DNA of 64,000 nucleotides from Candidatus Oxydemutatoraceae bacterium (GCA_965223735.1 OZ245010.1:1712397-1776396); one strand, 5' to 3'; positions 16,350 to 28,955 are shown, counted from the stretch's first letter. Numbers and translations are program-made. Notes: a model not told the origin generated them from the sequence alone.

Positions 16350-16447
16350 AGTGGAGTTATCTAGATGTAGTTTCTTCCCAATACTTTTTAATATGCCCCC
16401 CCCCTGATGCTGCTAGAAAAATTTGGAAGATGAGTTTAGTTTCTACC

Positions 16448-17010
16448 GTTGTGAATTGCGGATAGGCCTTGGTCAGTTATACTTTTTATGCGCCGTGTCA
16501 TAATAGAGCTCCTGTTGTGAATTGCGGATAGGCCTTGGTCAGTTATACTCCCGCGCTCCAGGAACGTCCATCATCTCCAGTTGTGAATTGCGGATAGGCC
16601 TTGGTCAGTTATACTGCTGATCATATTCTACCGGTGGATGGAGGCGTTGTGAATTGCGGATAGGCCTTGGTCAGTTATACTATTCAGTTCCTCAATTAAA
16701 ACACCTTTAGCGTTGTGAATTGCGGATAGGCCTTGGTCAGTTATACTGCAACACATCGTGCTGTCGTGTTGGGGCATGTTGTGAATTGCGGATAGGCCTT
16801 GGTCAGTTATACTAAGCTGCTTATCGACAACCTTCTGTGTCAGTTGTGAATTGCGGATAGGCCTTGGTCAGTTATACTTACCGCACGTTCCCTGTCTTTA
16901 CCAGTCAAGTTGTGAATTGCGGATAGGCCTTGGTCAGTTATACTTGAACTGATTGCGCCTCTACCCCCTGATTAGTTGTGAATTGCGGATAGGCCTTGGT
17001 CAGTTATACT
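16448..17010. CRISPR. CRISPR array: 9 direct repeats of 36 bp with 8 spacers of 29-30 bp
   Basis: Perfect repeat GTTGTGAATTGCGGATAGGCCTTGGTCAGTTATACT at 16448, 16514, 16580, 16646, 16712, 16778, 16843, 16909 and 16975. Spacers are unique and of mixed GC. A 48-bp AT-rich leader-like segment separates the array from the cas2 stop. Confidence 0.95.
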
Positions 17011-17058
17011 CGCCACAATGCAACAGGCTGATTTTTATAAAATTTCCAAGTATTGGAA

Positions 17059-17391
17059 TTACAGAAATTCCAGTTGTGTGGGTGGTTGTTCAATTGGTTT
17101 GGTCTTTTTTCCGTAGAAAACTTGTATTTTCCCAAATTGTTTATCGGTAATTTTTAGGATTCTTATTTCTCCATCGGGTGGCAGACAGCTTTTAACGCGT
17201 GCCACATGAACTTGTGCATTTTCTTCACTCGCACAGTGTCGCATATAAACAGAATACTGCATCATACCAAAGCCATCTACTAATAGGTTCTTCCGGAATT
17301 TGGAGTATTGTTTTCTTGCTGACTTAGTATCTGTCGGGAGATCAAACAATACAATAACCCACATAGTATGCGTTCCTCCAAAGCTAATCAT
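17059..17391 (-). CDS. cas2: CRISPR-associated endoribonuclease Cas2
   Basis: About 100 aa, MWVIVLFDLP..YSVYMRHC, typical of Cas2. 4-nt overlap with cas1. Alternative start at 17364. Confidence 0.85.
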   Translation of the reverse strand: MISFGGTHTMWVIVLFDLPTDTKSARKQYSKFRKNLLVDGFGMMQYSVYMRHCASEENAQVHVARVKSCLPPDGEIRILKITDKQFGKIQVFYGKKTKPIEQPPTQLEFL

Positions 17392-26326: not shown

Positions 26327-26329
26327 TAA

Positions 26330-28135
26330 ATGAACAATCTTTTAACAGACGATACGAAATCGATAATGCTGCTCTGTGGCGTGCTTGGAAAAGCGCGCTC
26401 CATAAAACCACTCACGCAATCAGAATACAACAGGGTAGCCCGCTGGCTGATCGGTGAGAAAATGCGGCCGGCGGATCTGCTCCGATATGAAAATGTAGAT
26501 TTGGCGGCAATAAATTCCGGGATCGAGCTGCAACGATTGAAATCCCTGCTCGGAAGAGGCGTTCAGCTTGGGTTTGCTGTAGAGGAATGGCAACAGAACG
26601 GCATTTGGGTTTTGAGCCGAAGCGACCGGGATTATCCGGCACGGTATAAAAAGCATCTGAAGAATGAAGCACCTCCGCTTCTTTTCGGAGTAGGCGACAG
26701 GTCTCTTTTGCAGGGTGGTGGAGTTGCAATTGTCGGTTCGCGGAATGTGGACGGTGACGGAGAGGATTTTGCCCGTAAAGTGGCTGAGCTATGCGCTTAC
26801 AACAGAATGCCGGTTGTTTCAGGGGGGGCTCGCGGGGTTGACCAGATTGCCATGACCGCCGCACTTGATGCGGGAGGTGTGGTAATAGGCGTTCTTGCTG
26901 AAAATCTTCTGAGGAGAAGTCTTGAACGCAATGCACGCAGGGCAATCTCTGATGACCAGTTGCTTTTAATATCTCCTTACCGCCCGGATGCCCGCTTTAC
27001 AGTCGGGACGGCAATGGGGCGAAATAAGTTGATCTATGCCATGGCTGATTACGGCCTGGTCGTGAGTGCTGAGTATAAAAAAGGCGGCACCTGGGCCGGG
27101 GCGGTGGAAGAGCTGAAACGGGAAAATCCTCTACCGGTTTTTGTGAGATCGGGCGCAAATGTTCCTGTCGGCAACACAGAGTTGCTGTGTTCAGGTGCTC
27201 TGGAGTATCAGGAAGTGAAATATCGGGAAGAGCTGGGTCAACACCTCGCTGATCTTGCCAAGATTGTAAAAGGTCAAGAACAAGCACAGATCGACAGATC
27301 AGGGAAAGATGAAAAACAGGGAGTTCTTCCTATTGGTCCAACGATGGACAGTTCCGCGGTGGCGCCGGGACCCGGCATTTACGAGACTGTATTACCGGTG
27401 ATCATTGATCATCTGGGATCCCCAACCGCCTCCGGTGAATTATCGAAAACCCTGGACGTGTCGAAAGCACAGCTGTATCGCTGGCTCAGAAAGGCTGTGG
27501 ATGAAGGACGGATCCAAAAACTACTAAGTCCTGTGAGATATCAGGTAATAGAGGCGGAACCGGAAACCATTTACGAAGCCGTATTGCCGGTGATCATTGC
27601 TCATCTGGGATCATCAACTGCGGTCGATGAATTATCGAAAGCTCTGGACGTGTCGAAAGCACAACTGAATCACTGGCTCAAAAAAGCCGTGGATGAAGAA
27701 AGGATCCGAAAGCTATCGCAGCCCGTAAGGTATCAGGCAATGGAAGCGGCGCAGACAACCATTTGCGAAGCCGTCTCGCCGGTGATCATCAGTCATCAAA
27801 CTATTTACGAAGCTGTATTGCCGATGATCATTGCTCATCTGGGATCCCCAACTGCACCCGGTGAATTATCGAAAACGCTGGACGTGTCGAAGGTACAGTT
27901 GAACAGCTGGCTCAAAAAGGCCGTGGATGAAGGACGGATCCAAAAGTTATCGCAGCCCGTAAGGTATCAGGCAATGGCAGCGGAGCCGACAACCATTTAC
28001 GAAGCCGTATTGCCGGTGATCATTGCTCATCTGGGATCATCAACTGCGGTCGATGAATTATCGAAAACTCTGGACGTGTTGAAGGTACAGTTGAACAGTT
28101 GGCTCAAAAAAGCCGTGAATGAAGGAAGGATCTGA
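26330..28135 (+). CDS. DprA/Smf (SLOG-fold) domain protein with four C-terminal ~63-aa tandem winged-helix-like repeats
   Basis: DprA Rossmann core VAIVGSRNVDG..VVSGGARGVDQIAMTAALDAGGVVIGVLAENL. The C-terminus carries 4 repeats of IYEAVLPVIIAHLGS.TA..ELSKTLDVSK.QLN.WLKKAVDEGRIQKLSQPVRYQA. Starts 4 nt after the helicase-PRTase stop. Confidence 0.75.
   Translation: MNNLLTDDTKSIMLLCGVLGKARSIKPLTQSEYNRVARWLIGEKMRPADLLRYENVDLAAINSGIELQRLKSLLGRGVQLGFAVEEWQQNGIWVLSRSDRDYPARYKKHLKNEAPPLLFGVGDRSLLQGGGVAIVGSRNVDGDGEDFARKVAELCAYNRMPVVSGGARGVDQIAMTAALDAGGVVIGVLAENLLRRSLERNARRAISDDQLLLISPYRPDARFTVGTAMGRNKLIYAMADYGLVVSAEYKKGGTWAGAVEELKRENPLPVFVRSGANVPVGNTELLCSGALEYQEVKYREELGQHLADLAKIVKGQEQAQIDRSGKDEKQGVLPIGPTMDSSAVAPGPGIYETVLPVIIDHLGSPTASGELSKTLDVSKAQLYRWLRKAVDEGRIQKLLSPVRYQVIEAEPETIYEAVLPVIIAHLGSSTAVDELSKALDVSKAQLNHWLKKAVDEERIRKLSQPVRYQAMEAAQTTICEAVSPVIISHQTIYEAVLPMIIAHLGSPTAPGELSKTLDVSKVQLNSWLKKAVDEGRIQKLSQPVRYQAMAAEPTTIYEAVLPVIIAHLGSSTAVDELSKTLDVLKVQLNSWLKKAVNEGRI
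27371..28135 (+). repeat. In-frame tandem DNA repeat, about 4.2 copies of about 189 bp, encoding the C-terminal repeats of the DprA-like gene
   Basis: Units begin ATTTACGAAGCCGTATTGCCGGTGATCATTGCTCATCTGGGATC at 27571, 27803 and 27991, with a diverged first unit at 27371 and a partial 42-bp unit at 27761. Confidence 0.85.
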
Positions 28136-28139
28136 TCCT

Positions 28140-28955
28140 TTACTCCCCACACCTCACGCTGAACCGCCGTTCCTGTCCCGGGTCGAGGCGGAACGCGGTC
28201 AGGCTGCCGCCCCACACGCAACCGGTGTCGAGGCCGAGAACCCCATCGCGGCGGATGAAACCGAGCGCCGACCAGTGGCCGAAGATCACCGTGTAGGCCG
28301 GGTCGCGGCGGTGGGGCGGTTCAAACCACGGGTGCAGGCCGTCCGGTTGCGTCCCCGGTTCGCGTTTATGTCCCAGGTCGATGCGTCCGTCGGCGCTGCA
28401 GAAGCGTAGCCGGGTCATCACATTGATGATCACGCGCGCACGGTCGTCGCCGTTTAAATTGTCGTCCCAGTATTCGGGTGTGTTGCCGTAGATGTTCTTG
28501 AGGAACGTCCGGTAGTCGTCCGCACGCAGTCGCGTTTCAACTTCTCCGGCAAGTGCCTGCGCGGTGTTGATGTCCCATCCGGGTATCAGGCCCGCGTGCA
28601 CCATCGCGAGGCGGCGTTCATGGTCCACGATGAACAGCGGGTGTCGTCTCAGCCACTCGATCAGTTCGCGGCGGTCGGGGCTTTGCAGCACCGCGTCGAG
28701 TGTGCCGTCGGCCGGCGGGTGTTCGCAGCCGGCGTCGGTTCTCAGCAGATGGAAGTCGTGATTGCCGAGCACGCACCGCACGCACGCGCCGAGGCTTTTC
28801 AGGAAGCGCAGGCTTTCGAGCGAATCGCTGCCGCGGCTGACGAGATCACCGGTCAGCCAGAGTTCGTCGTGCGCCGGGTCAAACTCGATCTCGTCGAGCA
28901 GTTGTTTCAGCGGGTTGAGGCAGCCTTGCAGATCGCCGATCGCGTAGAGTGACAT
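28140..28955 (-). CDS. apaH: Bis(5'-nucleosyl)-tetraphosphatase, symmetrical
   Basis: MSLYAIGDLQGC..LTGDLVSRG..GNHD metallophosphatase motifs. apaG-apaH synteny. Confidence 0.85.
   Translation of the reverse strand: MSLYAIGDLQGCLNPLKQLLDEIEFDPAHDELWLTGDLVSRGSDSLESLRFLKSLGACVRCVLGNHDFHLLRTDAGCEHPPADGTLDAVLQSPDRRELIEWLRRHPLFIVDHERRLAMVHAGLIPGWDINTAQALAGEVETRLRADDYRTFLKNIYGNTPEYWDDNLNGDDRARVIINVMTRLRFCSADGRIDLGHKREPGTQPDGLHPWFEPPHRRDPAYTVIFGHWSALGFIRRDGVLGLDTGCVWGGSLTAFRLDPGQERRFSVRCGE

Follow-up and report, generated by a model that had tools for sequence, protein, structure and literature searches.

A patchwork of defence genes between folA and apaH, with a broken extra apaH end that looks more like a recombination scar than an attachment site

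We found that the low-GC stretch between folA and apaH in Candidatus Oxydemutatoraceae bacterium is a true patchwork of defence genes, set between two conserved convergent genes. A broken extra apaH end within it looks more like the scar of integrase-free recombination than like the attachment site of a mobile element. The reading that we favour, at a little better than an even chance, is that recombination, either homology-assisted or illegitimate, has remodelled a defence hotspot of the chromosome. At this locus the window (the whole 64,000-nucleotide stretch of DNA that was analysed) has the gene order thyA1-folA1-X-[thyA2-folA2-CRISPR...cupin-TA-apaH']-psyrTA-apaH, with these features (window coordinates, strand):

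12908–14303, +, outer thyA1-folA1 copy (thyA1 12943–13755, folA1 13752–14255)
14304–15001, +, segment X, a unique 0.7-kb spacer between the thyA-folA copies, GC 0.566
15002–16404, +, inner thyA2-folA2 copy (thyA2 15037–15849, folA2 15846–16349), with the same poly-C tail as the outer copy
16448–17010, no strand assigned, CRISPR array of 9 identical 36-nt repeats and 8 spacers of 29–30 nt
17059–21388, -, type II-C cas operon (cas2 17059–17391, cas1 17388–18287, cas9 18280–21388)
21413–21525, + (strand and ends predicted), candidate tracrRNA: anti-repeat at 21413–21439, tail, terminator-like hairpin at ~21498–21524
21560–21830, -, frameshifted 3'-end remnant of an IS256-family transposase
21852–22067, +, small membrane ORF of 71 aa, called XhlA-like in the sequence-only reading
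22134–22448, +, cupin gene (Pfam Cupin_2, 9e-12), GC 0.606
22468–23848, -, toxin-antitoxin (TA)-like module: an 86-aa putative toxin (23588–23848) overlaps a 375-aa HTH(XRE)-M78 peptidase protein (22468–23595)
24032–24154, -, apaH' remnant, derived from the last ~80 apaH codons: 40 codons deleted in frame, one W codon changed to a stop, own stop codon retained
24245–26326, +, psyrT (rqlH), RecQ-like helicase with a C-terminal PRTase domain (putative toxin/effector)
26330–28135, +, psyrA (rqlI), DprA-like putative antitoxin with a winged-HTH in 4 tandem copies (27377–28132)
28140–28955, -, intact apaH (Metallophos); its last ~240 nt (28146–28382) are the partner of the remnant

GC content is 0.60–0.68 in the flanks, 0.38–0.45 at 16.5–21 kb, 0.49–0.56 at 21–23 kb, and 0.47–0.53 at 23–28 kb. 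By feature, it is 0.40–0.47 for CRISPR-cas, 0.46–0.52 for the TA pair, and 0.49–0.51 for psyrTA; within the island, the values for the cupin gene (0.606) and for the apaH remnant (0.667) are like those of the backbone. In two relatives (L091 and L094), the synteny is as here (lptD-surA-pdxA-ksgA-apaG-apaH / folA-thyA-lgt) and apaH and folA are only 61 bp and 180 bp apart, respectively, so the window's intervening DNA is inserted. This agrees with the sequence-only reading, which took the DNA between folA and apaH to be accessory: these two relatives have empty sites, and a third (L093) is near-empty. The relatives' ApaH proteins are 68–84% identical to this one, synteny is conserved, and thyA/folA are next to the locus in all of them (by Pfam annotation). 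Elsewhere the site is filled differently: L088 has a putative type II R-M pair (weak matches, below cut-off), L089 has a cupin and a 728-aa protein, and L090 has TonB-ExbBD and an unrelated II-C CRISPR-Cas system. Across seven related loci with varied cargo or none, there was no integrase in the gene calls.

The defence cargo identified with Pfam and PADLOC comprises a type II-C CRISPR-Cas system, a PD-Lambda-2_B-like/HigA-like TA pair, and PsyrTA. We found no integrase or recombinase domains in the main island ORFs, which were scanned with Pfam, NCBIfam, and PADLOC, as the sequence-only reading had anticipated. The sole mobility trace in the island is the IS256 stump, whose peptide, joined across the frameshift, is 65% identical (E=3e-16) to transposases annotated as IS256 family. 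The putative XhlA-like ORF of 71 aa next to it has no Pfam, NCBIfam, or PADLOC match. In the TA-like module, the 375-aa protein has Pfam HTH_3 and Peptidase_M78 domains and matches PADLOC PD-Lambda-2_B (1.4e-29); its match to HigA (TIGR02607, 4e-6) is below the cut-off. The 86-aa putative toxin upstream of the HTH-M78 gene has no HMM match in Pfam, PADLOC, or NCBIfam, and is tentatively called HigB-like from its motifs.

The CRISPR-Cas system resembles other type II-C systems in its order (cas9-cas1-cas2-array), its 36-nt repeats, the anti-repeat upstream of cas9, and the lack of evident csn2 and cas4 ORFs in the window's ORF list. Cas9 has Pfam HNH_4, RuvC_III, and Cas9_a domains and matches NCBIfam cas_Csn1 (1.5e-169, profile positions 2–932 of 1070). 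Unlike in those systems, the cas9 frame is broken near 18630, where a +1 frameshift within a run of six A (CACAAAAAATGG) gives 941 + ~110 aa; either the gene is a pseudogene or the homopolymer was misread in sequencing. The anti-repeat (23–27 nt) was found through inverted-repeat pairs between the array repeats and 21413–21439; an Rfam search with the candidate tracrRNA gave no match.

That the island was built by several acquisitions, as had been proposed, holds up, but the part from the CRISPR array to the TA pair is not the single element ("island A") that the sequence-only reading made of it. The cupin gene is a backbone-like resident neighbour of apaH and not mobile cargo: it is as diverged from the cupin of L089 as core genes are (84% identical in DNA, 81% in protein), and the L089 cupin gene, which has the same orientation, is directly beside apaH, 127 bp away from its stop. 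Nor does the island begin at 16396, as had been stated. The second thyA-folA copy (15002–16404) and segment X (14304–15001) also lie between the ancestral neighbours.

The thyA-folA duplication was absent from the earlier account. The two copies are 95.0% identical over 1403 nt (12908–14303 versus 15002–16404, from a self-search of the window), and folA1 is trailed by a 48-nt AT-rich tail with a poly-C tract at its end. Segment X contains an ORF of 59 aa with a coiled coil and TM segment (14652–14831) and a terminator-like hairpin (~14880–14905). It has no similarity to the relatives or to the remaining window, its Pfam and Rfam matches are weak and sub-threshold, and its ORF is not similar to the 71-aa ORF. 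There are 6 derived nonsynonymous changes in thyA1-folA1 versus 16 in thyA2-folA2 (along with 10 synonymous ones on the latter branch). This nonsynonymous excess, which includes a Pro-to-Val change in the conserved MPW motif of FolA2, indicates that thyA2-folA2 is under relaxed constraint. At 1.4 kb and with two complete genes in it, such a duplicate cannot be an att site. In topology it is like the apaH duplication, in that the cargo lies exactly between the copies.

As to the remnant itself, alignment of both apaH ends confirmed that a degenerate copy lies upstream of the helicase-PRTase gene (90 bp away). On the same strand, 24070–24142 matches 28298–28370 (93% over 73 nt; E=1e-27 pairwise and 1e-23 in the whole-window self-search) and 24038–24083 matches 28146–28191 (87%). 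On the minus strand the remnant reads IDLKHEREPGTQPDGLHP, stop, FEPPRRRDPEWKRRFSVGCGR, stop; the intact gene reads IDLGHKREPGTQPDGLHPWFEPPHRRDPAYTV...LDPGQERRFSVRCGE, stop. The translation bears out the W-to-stop change that had been described, and the internal deletion is also real: it removes 120 nt (40 codons, in frame) and falls between two 14-nt direct repeats in apaH (CCGGGTCG[A/C]GGCGG, at 28178–28191 and 28298–28311). Because this deletion is inside the copy, the remnant derives from the last ~80 codons of apaH, not the last ~40 as first thought. Its own stop codon is retained at 24032–24034. The two copies have lineage-specific substitutions in common and nearly all of the differences are derived in the remnant, so the intact apaH end shows no sign of origin from a foreign element. 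The distal repeat boundary has ~5 mismatches in its first 22 nt and no perfectly conserved core. Decay could have blurred a core there.

The block between the two apaH ends, which the sequence-only reading called "island B," is, judging from its profile matches, the known PsyrTA (RqlHI) defence/toxin-antitoxin pair. In PsyrTA, the PRTase domain is toxic, the N-terminus of the DprA-like protein neutralises it, and the HTH is dispensable; among homologues, the partner likewise neutralises toxicity, and anti-phage activity is reported (bioRxiv 10.1101/2022.05.11.491447; Russell & Mulvey 2015, PMC4670107). The genes here share the known arrangement, in which the gene for a RecQ-like helicase that ends in a PRTase domain precedes one for a DprA-like protein that ends in an HTH, and both predicted products match the PADLOC models at full length: PsyrT at 3.7e-285 (residues 3–689, with Pfam DEAD, Helicase_C, and RecQ_Zn_bind domains) and PsyrA at 1.8e-147 (with Pfam DNA_processg_A, 5e-36). 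Pribosyltran is sub-threshold in PsyrT (residues 600–681, 21.7 bits versus a cut-off of 26.3 bits, E=1.4e-4), and there is a PRPP-loop-like motif (LLIDDVVDSGWT). The closest homologues of PsyrT are 77–78% identical. Close relatives of the pair occur as cassettes of just the two genes, in unrelated surroundings that lack apaH fragments, and the gene calls around four of these cassettes (L082–L085) show no integrase at the site.

The genes psyrT and psyrA are 3 nt apart. PsyrA is unusual in its length (601 aa versus ~400–440 aa in relatives), in that its winged-HTH is tandemly quadruplicated, and in that the natural C-terminal tail of ~28 aa is missing. The last winged-HTH copy is cut off exactly at the apaH junction, and alignment to relatives of 428–439 aa shows that psyrA is short of ~28 C-terminal codons. 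The psyrA stop (28133–28135) and the apaH stop codon (28140–28142) are 4 nt apart, and the junction replaces the final apaH codon. Rather than a clean att junction, this joint marks a breakpoint of illegitimate recombination or else a deletion that came later. The truncated psyrA end would be equally expected from a later deletion that removed an integrase, which counts against our preferred view.

The structure of the locus, its junctions, what its cargo is, and the state of the site in relatives (empty or otherwise filled) are observed, and the recombination route is what we infer. The locus can be viewed as a locus within a locus, an inner thyA2-folA2 ... cupin-TA-apaH' inside an outer thyA1-folA1-X ... 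psyrTA-apaH. Blocks of separate origin (type II-C CRISPR-Cas, the IS256 stump, the HigBA-like TA pair, and PsyrTA) would thus be interleaved with native pieces (the cupin gene, the second thyA-folA, and the decayed apaH 3' end). Related DNA with cargo and flank homology may have been joined without an element-encoded integrase by single-crossover (Campbell-type) homologous integration of a circularised fragment, by homology-facilitated illegitimate recombination (HFIR), or by one illegitimate insertion of a 9.15-kb piece (15002–24154) that came from the whole folA-apaH locus of a sister chromosome. By any of these routes the cargo would end up between two copies of part of a core gene from the flank. 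Decay of the redundant copies would have followed, with apaH' acquiring a stop codon and losing 120 nt by slippage, and with thyA2-folA2 gaining amino-acid changes. HFIR and Campbell-type integration leave cargo bracketed by duplicated homology, with illegitimate joints anywhere inside genes. The bracketed cargo and in-gene joints that they predict are seen here; the difference is that the route is proposed from sequence and that a donor allele (thyA-folA-X-psyrTA-apaH, or the inner allele alone) was not found, the nearest genome having 84% ApaH identity. Also in favour of this reading are the apaH-end duplicates without cargo in L093 and L089, the many tandem repeats of gene parts in this lineage (both described below), and the lineage-specific states common to both apaH copies.

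The sequence-only reading saw instead an att-like signature of an element that targeted the apaH 3' end. Restricted to island B, that model would have a psyrTA element with its own apaH 3' end integrate site-specifically into apaH, the displaced host 3' end become the remnant, and the integrase, with the rest of the element, be lost later by a deletion from inside psyrA to the apaH stop. We consider this unlikely. Phage 21 and e14 integrate into the 3' end of icd in this way; they encode an integrase and bring a visibly foreign 3' end. The likeness is an intact gene 3' end with a displaced partial copy beyond the inserted DNA: direct repeats of the target gene's 3' end (24038–24154 versus 28146–28382) enclose a single cargo block exactly, and of the two copies the one next to the gene is intact, whereas the displaced one has become a pseudogene. 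In contrast to icd, there is no integrase or remnant of one here or in the seven related loci, the intact end has the substitutions of its own lineage, and in place of a clean junction with intact cargo, a cargo gene is truncated at the proximal junction. That truncation fits a deletion where an integrase would sit, and the IS256 stump shows that the island has had deletions, but this one must end within one codon of the apaH stop. The repeat boundary lacks a perfect core, PsyrTA relatives are unlinked to apaH fragments, and the thyA-folA duplicate is left unexplained. Recurrence at the same target is also missing: neither 88 apaH loci (with flanks of up to 10 kb, from genomes that include no close strains) nor IMG/VR yielded an apaH-targeting element, and IMG/VR prophages beside apaH use the neighbouring tRNA-Ser gene. 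The pair stands as a discrete block bracketed by the apaH duplication, and nothing shows integrase-mediated targeting of apaH.

Slightly more doubtful still is that local tandem duplication of the apaH 3' end and, separately, of thyA-folA came first, with foreign psyrTA and X landing at the junctions later. Cargo-free tandem duplicates of the apaH end do exist: L093 (the only one of the 88 loci with a downstream copy above threshold) appears to have a 308-nt unit three times across the apaH and folA 3' ends (99%, in a 3x-coverage contig), and L089 has a decayed copy just past the stop (0/300 shuffles reach its score). Tandem repeats of parts of genes occur often in this genome, as in its relatives; in the window they include the ksgA 5' end at 29992–30720 (x2.7), 31869–32336 (x4), and 8903–9540 (x3). 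The lineage-specific states common to both apaH copies also fit, as would relaxed constraint on a long-resident thyA2-folA2 paralogue. However, cargo must hit a duplication junction exactly on two separate occasions, and the truncation of psyrA at the junction is not predicted. An assembly artefact, in which two co-existing strain variants were joined in a metagenome assembly, seems very improbable. The source is apparently a long metagenome-derived contig (1.85 Mb), the short-read Logan contigs lack thyA/folA proteins, and our search gave no independent contig over the thyA1-X-thyA2 joins. But two independent short-read assemblies have contigs that match the remnant|psyrT and psyrA|apaH junctions with 100% identity (L087 over 24101–27594 and L001 over 27991–30053, respectively), so the remnant is not an assembly artefact. 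A strain switch would not give the remnant's deletion, its stop codon, or its end at the limit of homology, and the thyA-folA copies are 5% apart with a copy-specific nonsynonymous excess.

A preprint on E. coli pan-genome islands lists PsyrTA as one of the systems in them; in the portion that we drew on, islands whose mobility is unclear are said typically to retain integrase or recombinase genes, and folA/apaH is not mentioned as a hotspot (bioRxiv 10.1101/2022.06.09.495481). Compared with the core-gene-flanked hotspots described in that portion, the locus here has no integrase and has nested, duplicated pieces of both flanking core genes; it is like them in its mostly defence cargo, its fixed position, and its empty or differently filled sites in relatives. 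Overall, the feature is of an ordinary kind but is unusual in structure, and the folA-apaH gap would be a hotspot at which this gammaproteobacterial lineage takes up accessory DNA, most of it for defence.

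The thyA-folA pair that borders the island occurs twice in the window, which the sequence-only reading overlooked. The outer copy (thyA1-folA1) and the inner copy (thyA2-folA2) are 95% identical over 1.4 kb. The repeat includes a 48-55 nt AT-rich tail that ends in poly-C after each folA, and a unique 0.7-kb segment, which we call X, parts the two copies. The poly-C tracts (C17 at 14296-14312 and C9 at 16397-16405) lie where core DNA passes into accessory DNA, and their lengths may be unreliable if the assembly was made from long reads. The main features are as follows.

Features of the region between lgt and apaH
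12908-14303: thyA1-folA1 with its tail
14304-15001: segment X
15002-16404: thyA2-folA2 with its tail
21560-21830: frameshifted 3'-end stump of an IS256-family transposase gene (tblastn against plasmids)
22468-23848: gene for an HTH-M78 protein, with an overlapping 86-aa ORF ahead of it (the TA pair)
24032-24154: decayed partial copy of the apaH 3' end (the remnant, apaH')
24245-26326, plus strand: psyrT, the helicase-PRTase gene
26330-28135, plus strand: psyrA, the DprA-like gene
28140-28955, minus strand: intact apaH

The full order is lgt-[thyA1-folA1-tail]-X-{[thyA2-folA2-tail]-CRISPR-Cas-IS stump-small ORF-cupin-TA-apaH'}-psyrTA-apaH. The inner set (15002-24154, in braces) is ordered and oriented like a complete folA-apaH locus and preserves the cupin-apaH adjacency of a related locus, L089. 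The outer set encloses it: X adjoins the inner set at its thyA2 end and psyrTA at its apaH' end. The native pieces are nested, one locus inside another.

The second copy of the apaH end is genuine and lies far above chance expectation: on the same strand, 24070-24142 matches 28298-28370 at 93% identity (E=1e-27, pairwise), and 24038-24083 matches 28146-28191 at 87%. It derives from the last ~80 codons of apaH rather than the last ~40, as had been proposed from the sequence alone. The tryptophan-to-stop change and the internal deletion noticed in that reading are both present, and the remnant also retains its own stop codon. The deletion is of 120 nt (40 codons, in frame) and falls between the members of a 14-nt direct-repeat pair inside apaH; from this placement, it looks like a slipped-strand deletion. 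The last apaH codon differs between the intact copy and the remnant. The remnant|psyrT and psyrA|apaH junctions are found at 100% identity in two independent short-read assemblies, which rules out an assembly artefact for the remnant. A candidate for a second, older remnant in the spacer at 23849-24037 was not significant (its score was reached in 67 of 500 shuffles), and the exact 28-nt pattern of the apaH end had no match in JGI metagenomes.

Each of the related genomes has one thyA-folA copy, and a cluster look-up found no other strain with either thyA/folA variant. The related loci L088 and L089 served as outgroups to polarise the differences between the two copies. The two branches have comparable numbers of synonymous changes (14 and 10), while there are 16 nonsynonymous changes in copy 2 versus 6 in copy 1; this marks copy 2 as the redundant one, under relaxed constraint. 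FolA2 carries a Pro-to-Val change in the MPW (Met-Pro-Trp) motif that is conserved in DHFR, and a Pro-to-Phe change at residue 74. Copy 2 could be decaying, or it could encode a variant DHFR. An assembly artefact is possible at the thyA1-X-thyA2 joins. For the ORF in X, an exact-match search of records gave nothing. Rfam gave no matches at the gathering threshold over the island and one weak, chance-level match in X, and two small membrane ORFs (14652-14831 and 21852-22067) have no similarity to each other.

The island is indeed low in GC (0.38-0.56 over ~16.4-28.1 kb, versus 0.60-0.68 in the flanks), though unevenly by feature: 0.40-0.47 for CRISPR-cas, 0.46-0.52 for the TA pair, and 0.49-0.51 for psyrTA. 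Two features inside it have backbone-like GC, the cupin gene (0.606) and the apaH remnant (0.667). The cupin had been grouped with the CRISPR-Cas, IS256, XhlA-like, and higBA genes as a single “island A,” and this unit proved to be a mosaic. The cupin is 81% identical to the L089 cupin as protein and 84% as DNA, and the core genes are 79-88% identical. In L089, 127 bp separate the cupin from the apaH stop, and the relative orientation is as in the window. Homology between the window and L089 stops 11 nt beyond the cupin stop, at the start of the window's TA pair. Given this core-like divergence and backbone-like GC, the cupin is a resident neighbour of apaH. The TA pair and psyrTA were inserted between the cupin and apaH, and CRISPR-Cas and the IS stump on the cupin's other side. 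In metagenomes, the cupin family is widespread (60-74% identity) and was never found beside apaH or folA, so it added no other cases of the hotspot.

The cargo genes (type II-C CRISPR-Cas, PsyrTA, and the TA pair) belong to known families. The CRISPR-Cas system, which is upstream of psyrTA, comprises an array of nine identical 36-nt repeats, the genes cas2, cas1, and cas9, and, upstream of cas9, an anti-repeat that leads into a terminator-like tail. Within 21413-21525, the anti-repeat pairs with the 3' two-thirds of the plus-strand repeat, and the terminator follows on the plus strand, so crRNA and tracrRNA could be transcribed in either direction relative to the cas genes. A +1 frameshift in an A6 run (CACAAAAAATGG; 18600-18680, minus strand) breaks cas9 in two; with one A removed, the frame is open and encodes a Cas9 of ~1,040 aa. 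Either decay or a homopolymer error could account for the frameshift. The IS256 stump escaped Pfam and NCBIfam and was detected by tblastn against plasmids. For the TA pair, the name higBA is plausible but unproven: the HTH-M78 protein matches PD-Lambda-2_B (1.4e-29) and, weakly, HigA, while the 86-aa ORF has no HMM match. Domain scans of the island's main ORFs found no integrase or recombinase, as the sequence-only reading had stated.

The helicase-PRTase/DprA-like pair is PsyrTA (RqlHI), with full-length PADLOC matches for PsyrT (3.7e-285) and PsyrA (1.8e-147) and agreeing Pfam domains. PsyrTA is a toxin-antitoxin pair that is also anti-phage; toxicity comes from the PRTase domain, and the DprA-like N-terminus neutralises it (bioRxiv 10.1101/2022.05.11.491447; PMC4670107). 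PsyrA of relatives has one winged-HTH followed by ~28 more residues. In contrast, psyrA in the window has four in tandem (27377-28132; units of 192-234 nt, 81-89% identical) and lacks the natural C-terminal tail. Its last HTH copy terminates at ...NEGRI, with the psyrA stop 4 nt from the apaH stop codon. The DNA upstream of psyrT does not align between the window and relatives, so it did not locate a cassette edge.

ApaH homologues that are 68-84% identical led us to seven related loci. Where the contig reaches, they share synteny, with lptD-surA-pdxA-ksgA-apaG-apaH converging on folA-thyA-lgt.

Content of the apaH-folA gap in the related loci (with ApaH identity)
L088 (84%): low-GC putative methyltransferase and Tsp45I-like endonuclease
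L089 (78%): cupin and a 728-aa uncharacterised protein
L092 (78%): uninformative, as the contig stops 275 nt past apaH
L090 (74%): TonB-ExbBD, an array of 33 repeats, and a different II-C cas9/cas1/cas2 set, 28-38% identical to that of the window
L091 (73%): empty, 61 bp
L093 (70%): no cargo; a 308-nt unit in 3.0 copies at 99%
L094 (68%): empty, 180 bp

Given these empty and differently filled gaps, the folA/apaH gap is a hotspot of variable content in this lineage. It is largest in the window, where the folA1 and apaH stops are ~13.9 kb apart. In L088, the closest relative, the gene pair (1170-3241) has a GC of 0.37-0.38, the putative methyltransferase has an NPPY motif, and the ApaH C-terminus is 10 residues longer. 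The L090 CRISPR-Cas (13436-20167) occupies the same hotspot in the opposite orientation, adjoins TonB-ExbBD, and has a 1072-aa Cas9 (28% identical to the window's). The L093 unit (10637-11560) consists of the last ~174 nt of apaH, a short intergenic spacer, and the last ~120 nt of folA, on a contig with 3x coverage. In L089, a second, decayed apaH terminus (10811-10868) lies right after the apaH stop and before the cupin, with a score reached in 0 of 300 shuffles. A scan of GTDB species representatives with ApaH gave relatives with at most 55% identity, which served for synteny only.

Other large-period tandem arrays lie at or near gene boundaries in the window: 31869-32336 (117 nt, 4 copies), 8903-9540 (215 nt, 3 copies), and 48811-48973 (89 nt, 1.8 copies). 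At 29992-30720, a 265-nt unit with the 5' end of ksgA (rsmA), including the SAM-binding motif, is present in 2.7 copies at 96% and gives pseudo-5' ends upstream of the gene. Comparable arrays occur in relatives (for example, L089 17996-18688 and 3039-3478, and L091 15702-16703). Large-period tandem duplications seem to arise readily in this lineage.

How was the island assembled? We favour, at somewhat better than even odds, recombination without an integrase. The thyA-folA duplicate shares the topology of the apaH duplicate yet is ruled out as an att site. At psyrA|apaH, the missing psyrA tail and the differing last apaH codon mark the joint as illegitimate. The apaH copies share substitutions that are unique to this lineage, and nearly all of their differences are derived in the remnant. 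Close PsyrTA relatives (77-78% identity) occur in unrelated contexts, each as a two-gene cassette and nothing more. No apaH-targeting integrative element was found among 88 apaH loci or in IMG/VR, and no integrase lies in the apaH-folA gap of any related locus. Such recombination could have taken three routes: single-crossover (Campbell-type) homologous integration of a circularised fragment with cargo and flank homology; homology-facilitated illegitimate recombination with one flank as the anchor; or a single illegitimate insertion of a 9.15-kb piece of a sister chromosome's locus between X and psyrT. Each would leave cargo exactly bracketed by a duplicated flank segment, with no element-encoded recombinase, and we do not prefer one over the others.

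The sequence-only reading saw in the apaH repeats the att-like signature of an integrative element that targeted the apaH 3' end. Phage 21 and e14 integrate at icd in this way. The repeats stand, while the missing integrase (here and in relatives) and the illegitimate joint go against the rest. For the psyrTA block, this model needs a deletion that started within psyrA, took out the integrase, and ended no more than one codon from the apaH stop, and it leaves the thyA-folA copy unexplained; we consider it unlikely. In IMG/VR, the prophages beside apaH are inserted at a tRNA-Ser gene. Two such regions from other proteobacteria (L175, 1215-1304, and L180, 586-673) start beside apaH and are integrated at tRNA-Ser(tga) just downstream, and a P4-type integrase adjoins this gene in L180. 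Duplication might instead have come first and cargo later, as both this genome and those of its relatives abound in partial-gene tandem repeats (the ksgA 5' end, 31869-32336, 8903-9540, L093, and L089). However, two insertions must then have landed exactly at duplication junctions, and we give this order of events rather little weight. An extension of integrase-free recombination, which we offer as doubtful, is that the folA/apaH junction is a landing pad in this lineage: the recurrent terminal duplicates of both genes (window, L093, and L089) would act as homology arms, and host recombination alone would capture and stack defence alleles or cassettes.

The cargo families and the idea of a defence hotspot flanked by core genes are already known, and this is no new kind of system. 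What is unusual is structural: both flanks are duplicated in a nested arrangement, and apaH-end duplicates recur in relatives. The locus clearly illustrates a defence island that lacks its own recombinase, and its scars (repeated parts of the core genes on either side, nested as one locus inside another) may show how it was assembled. To our knowledge, the stacking of cargo at hotspots by host recombination is widely assumed and seldom visible in sequence. Should closer relatives show the same pattern, it would be a documented case of host recombination stacking defence cargo at the junction of two core genes.
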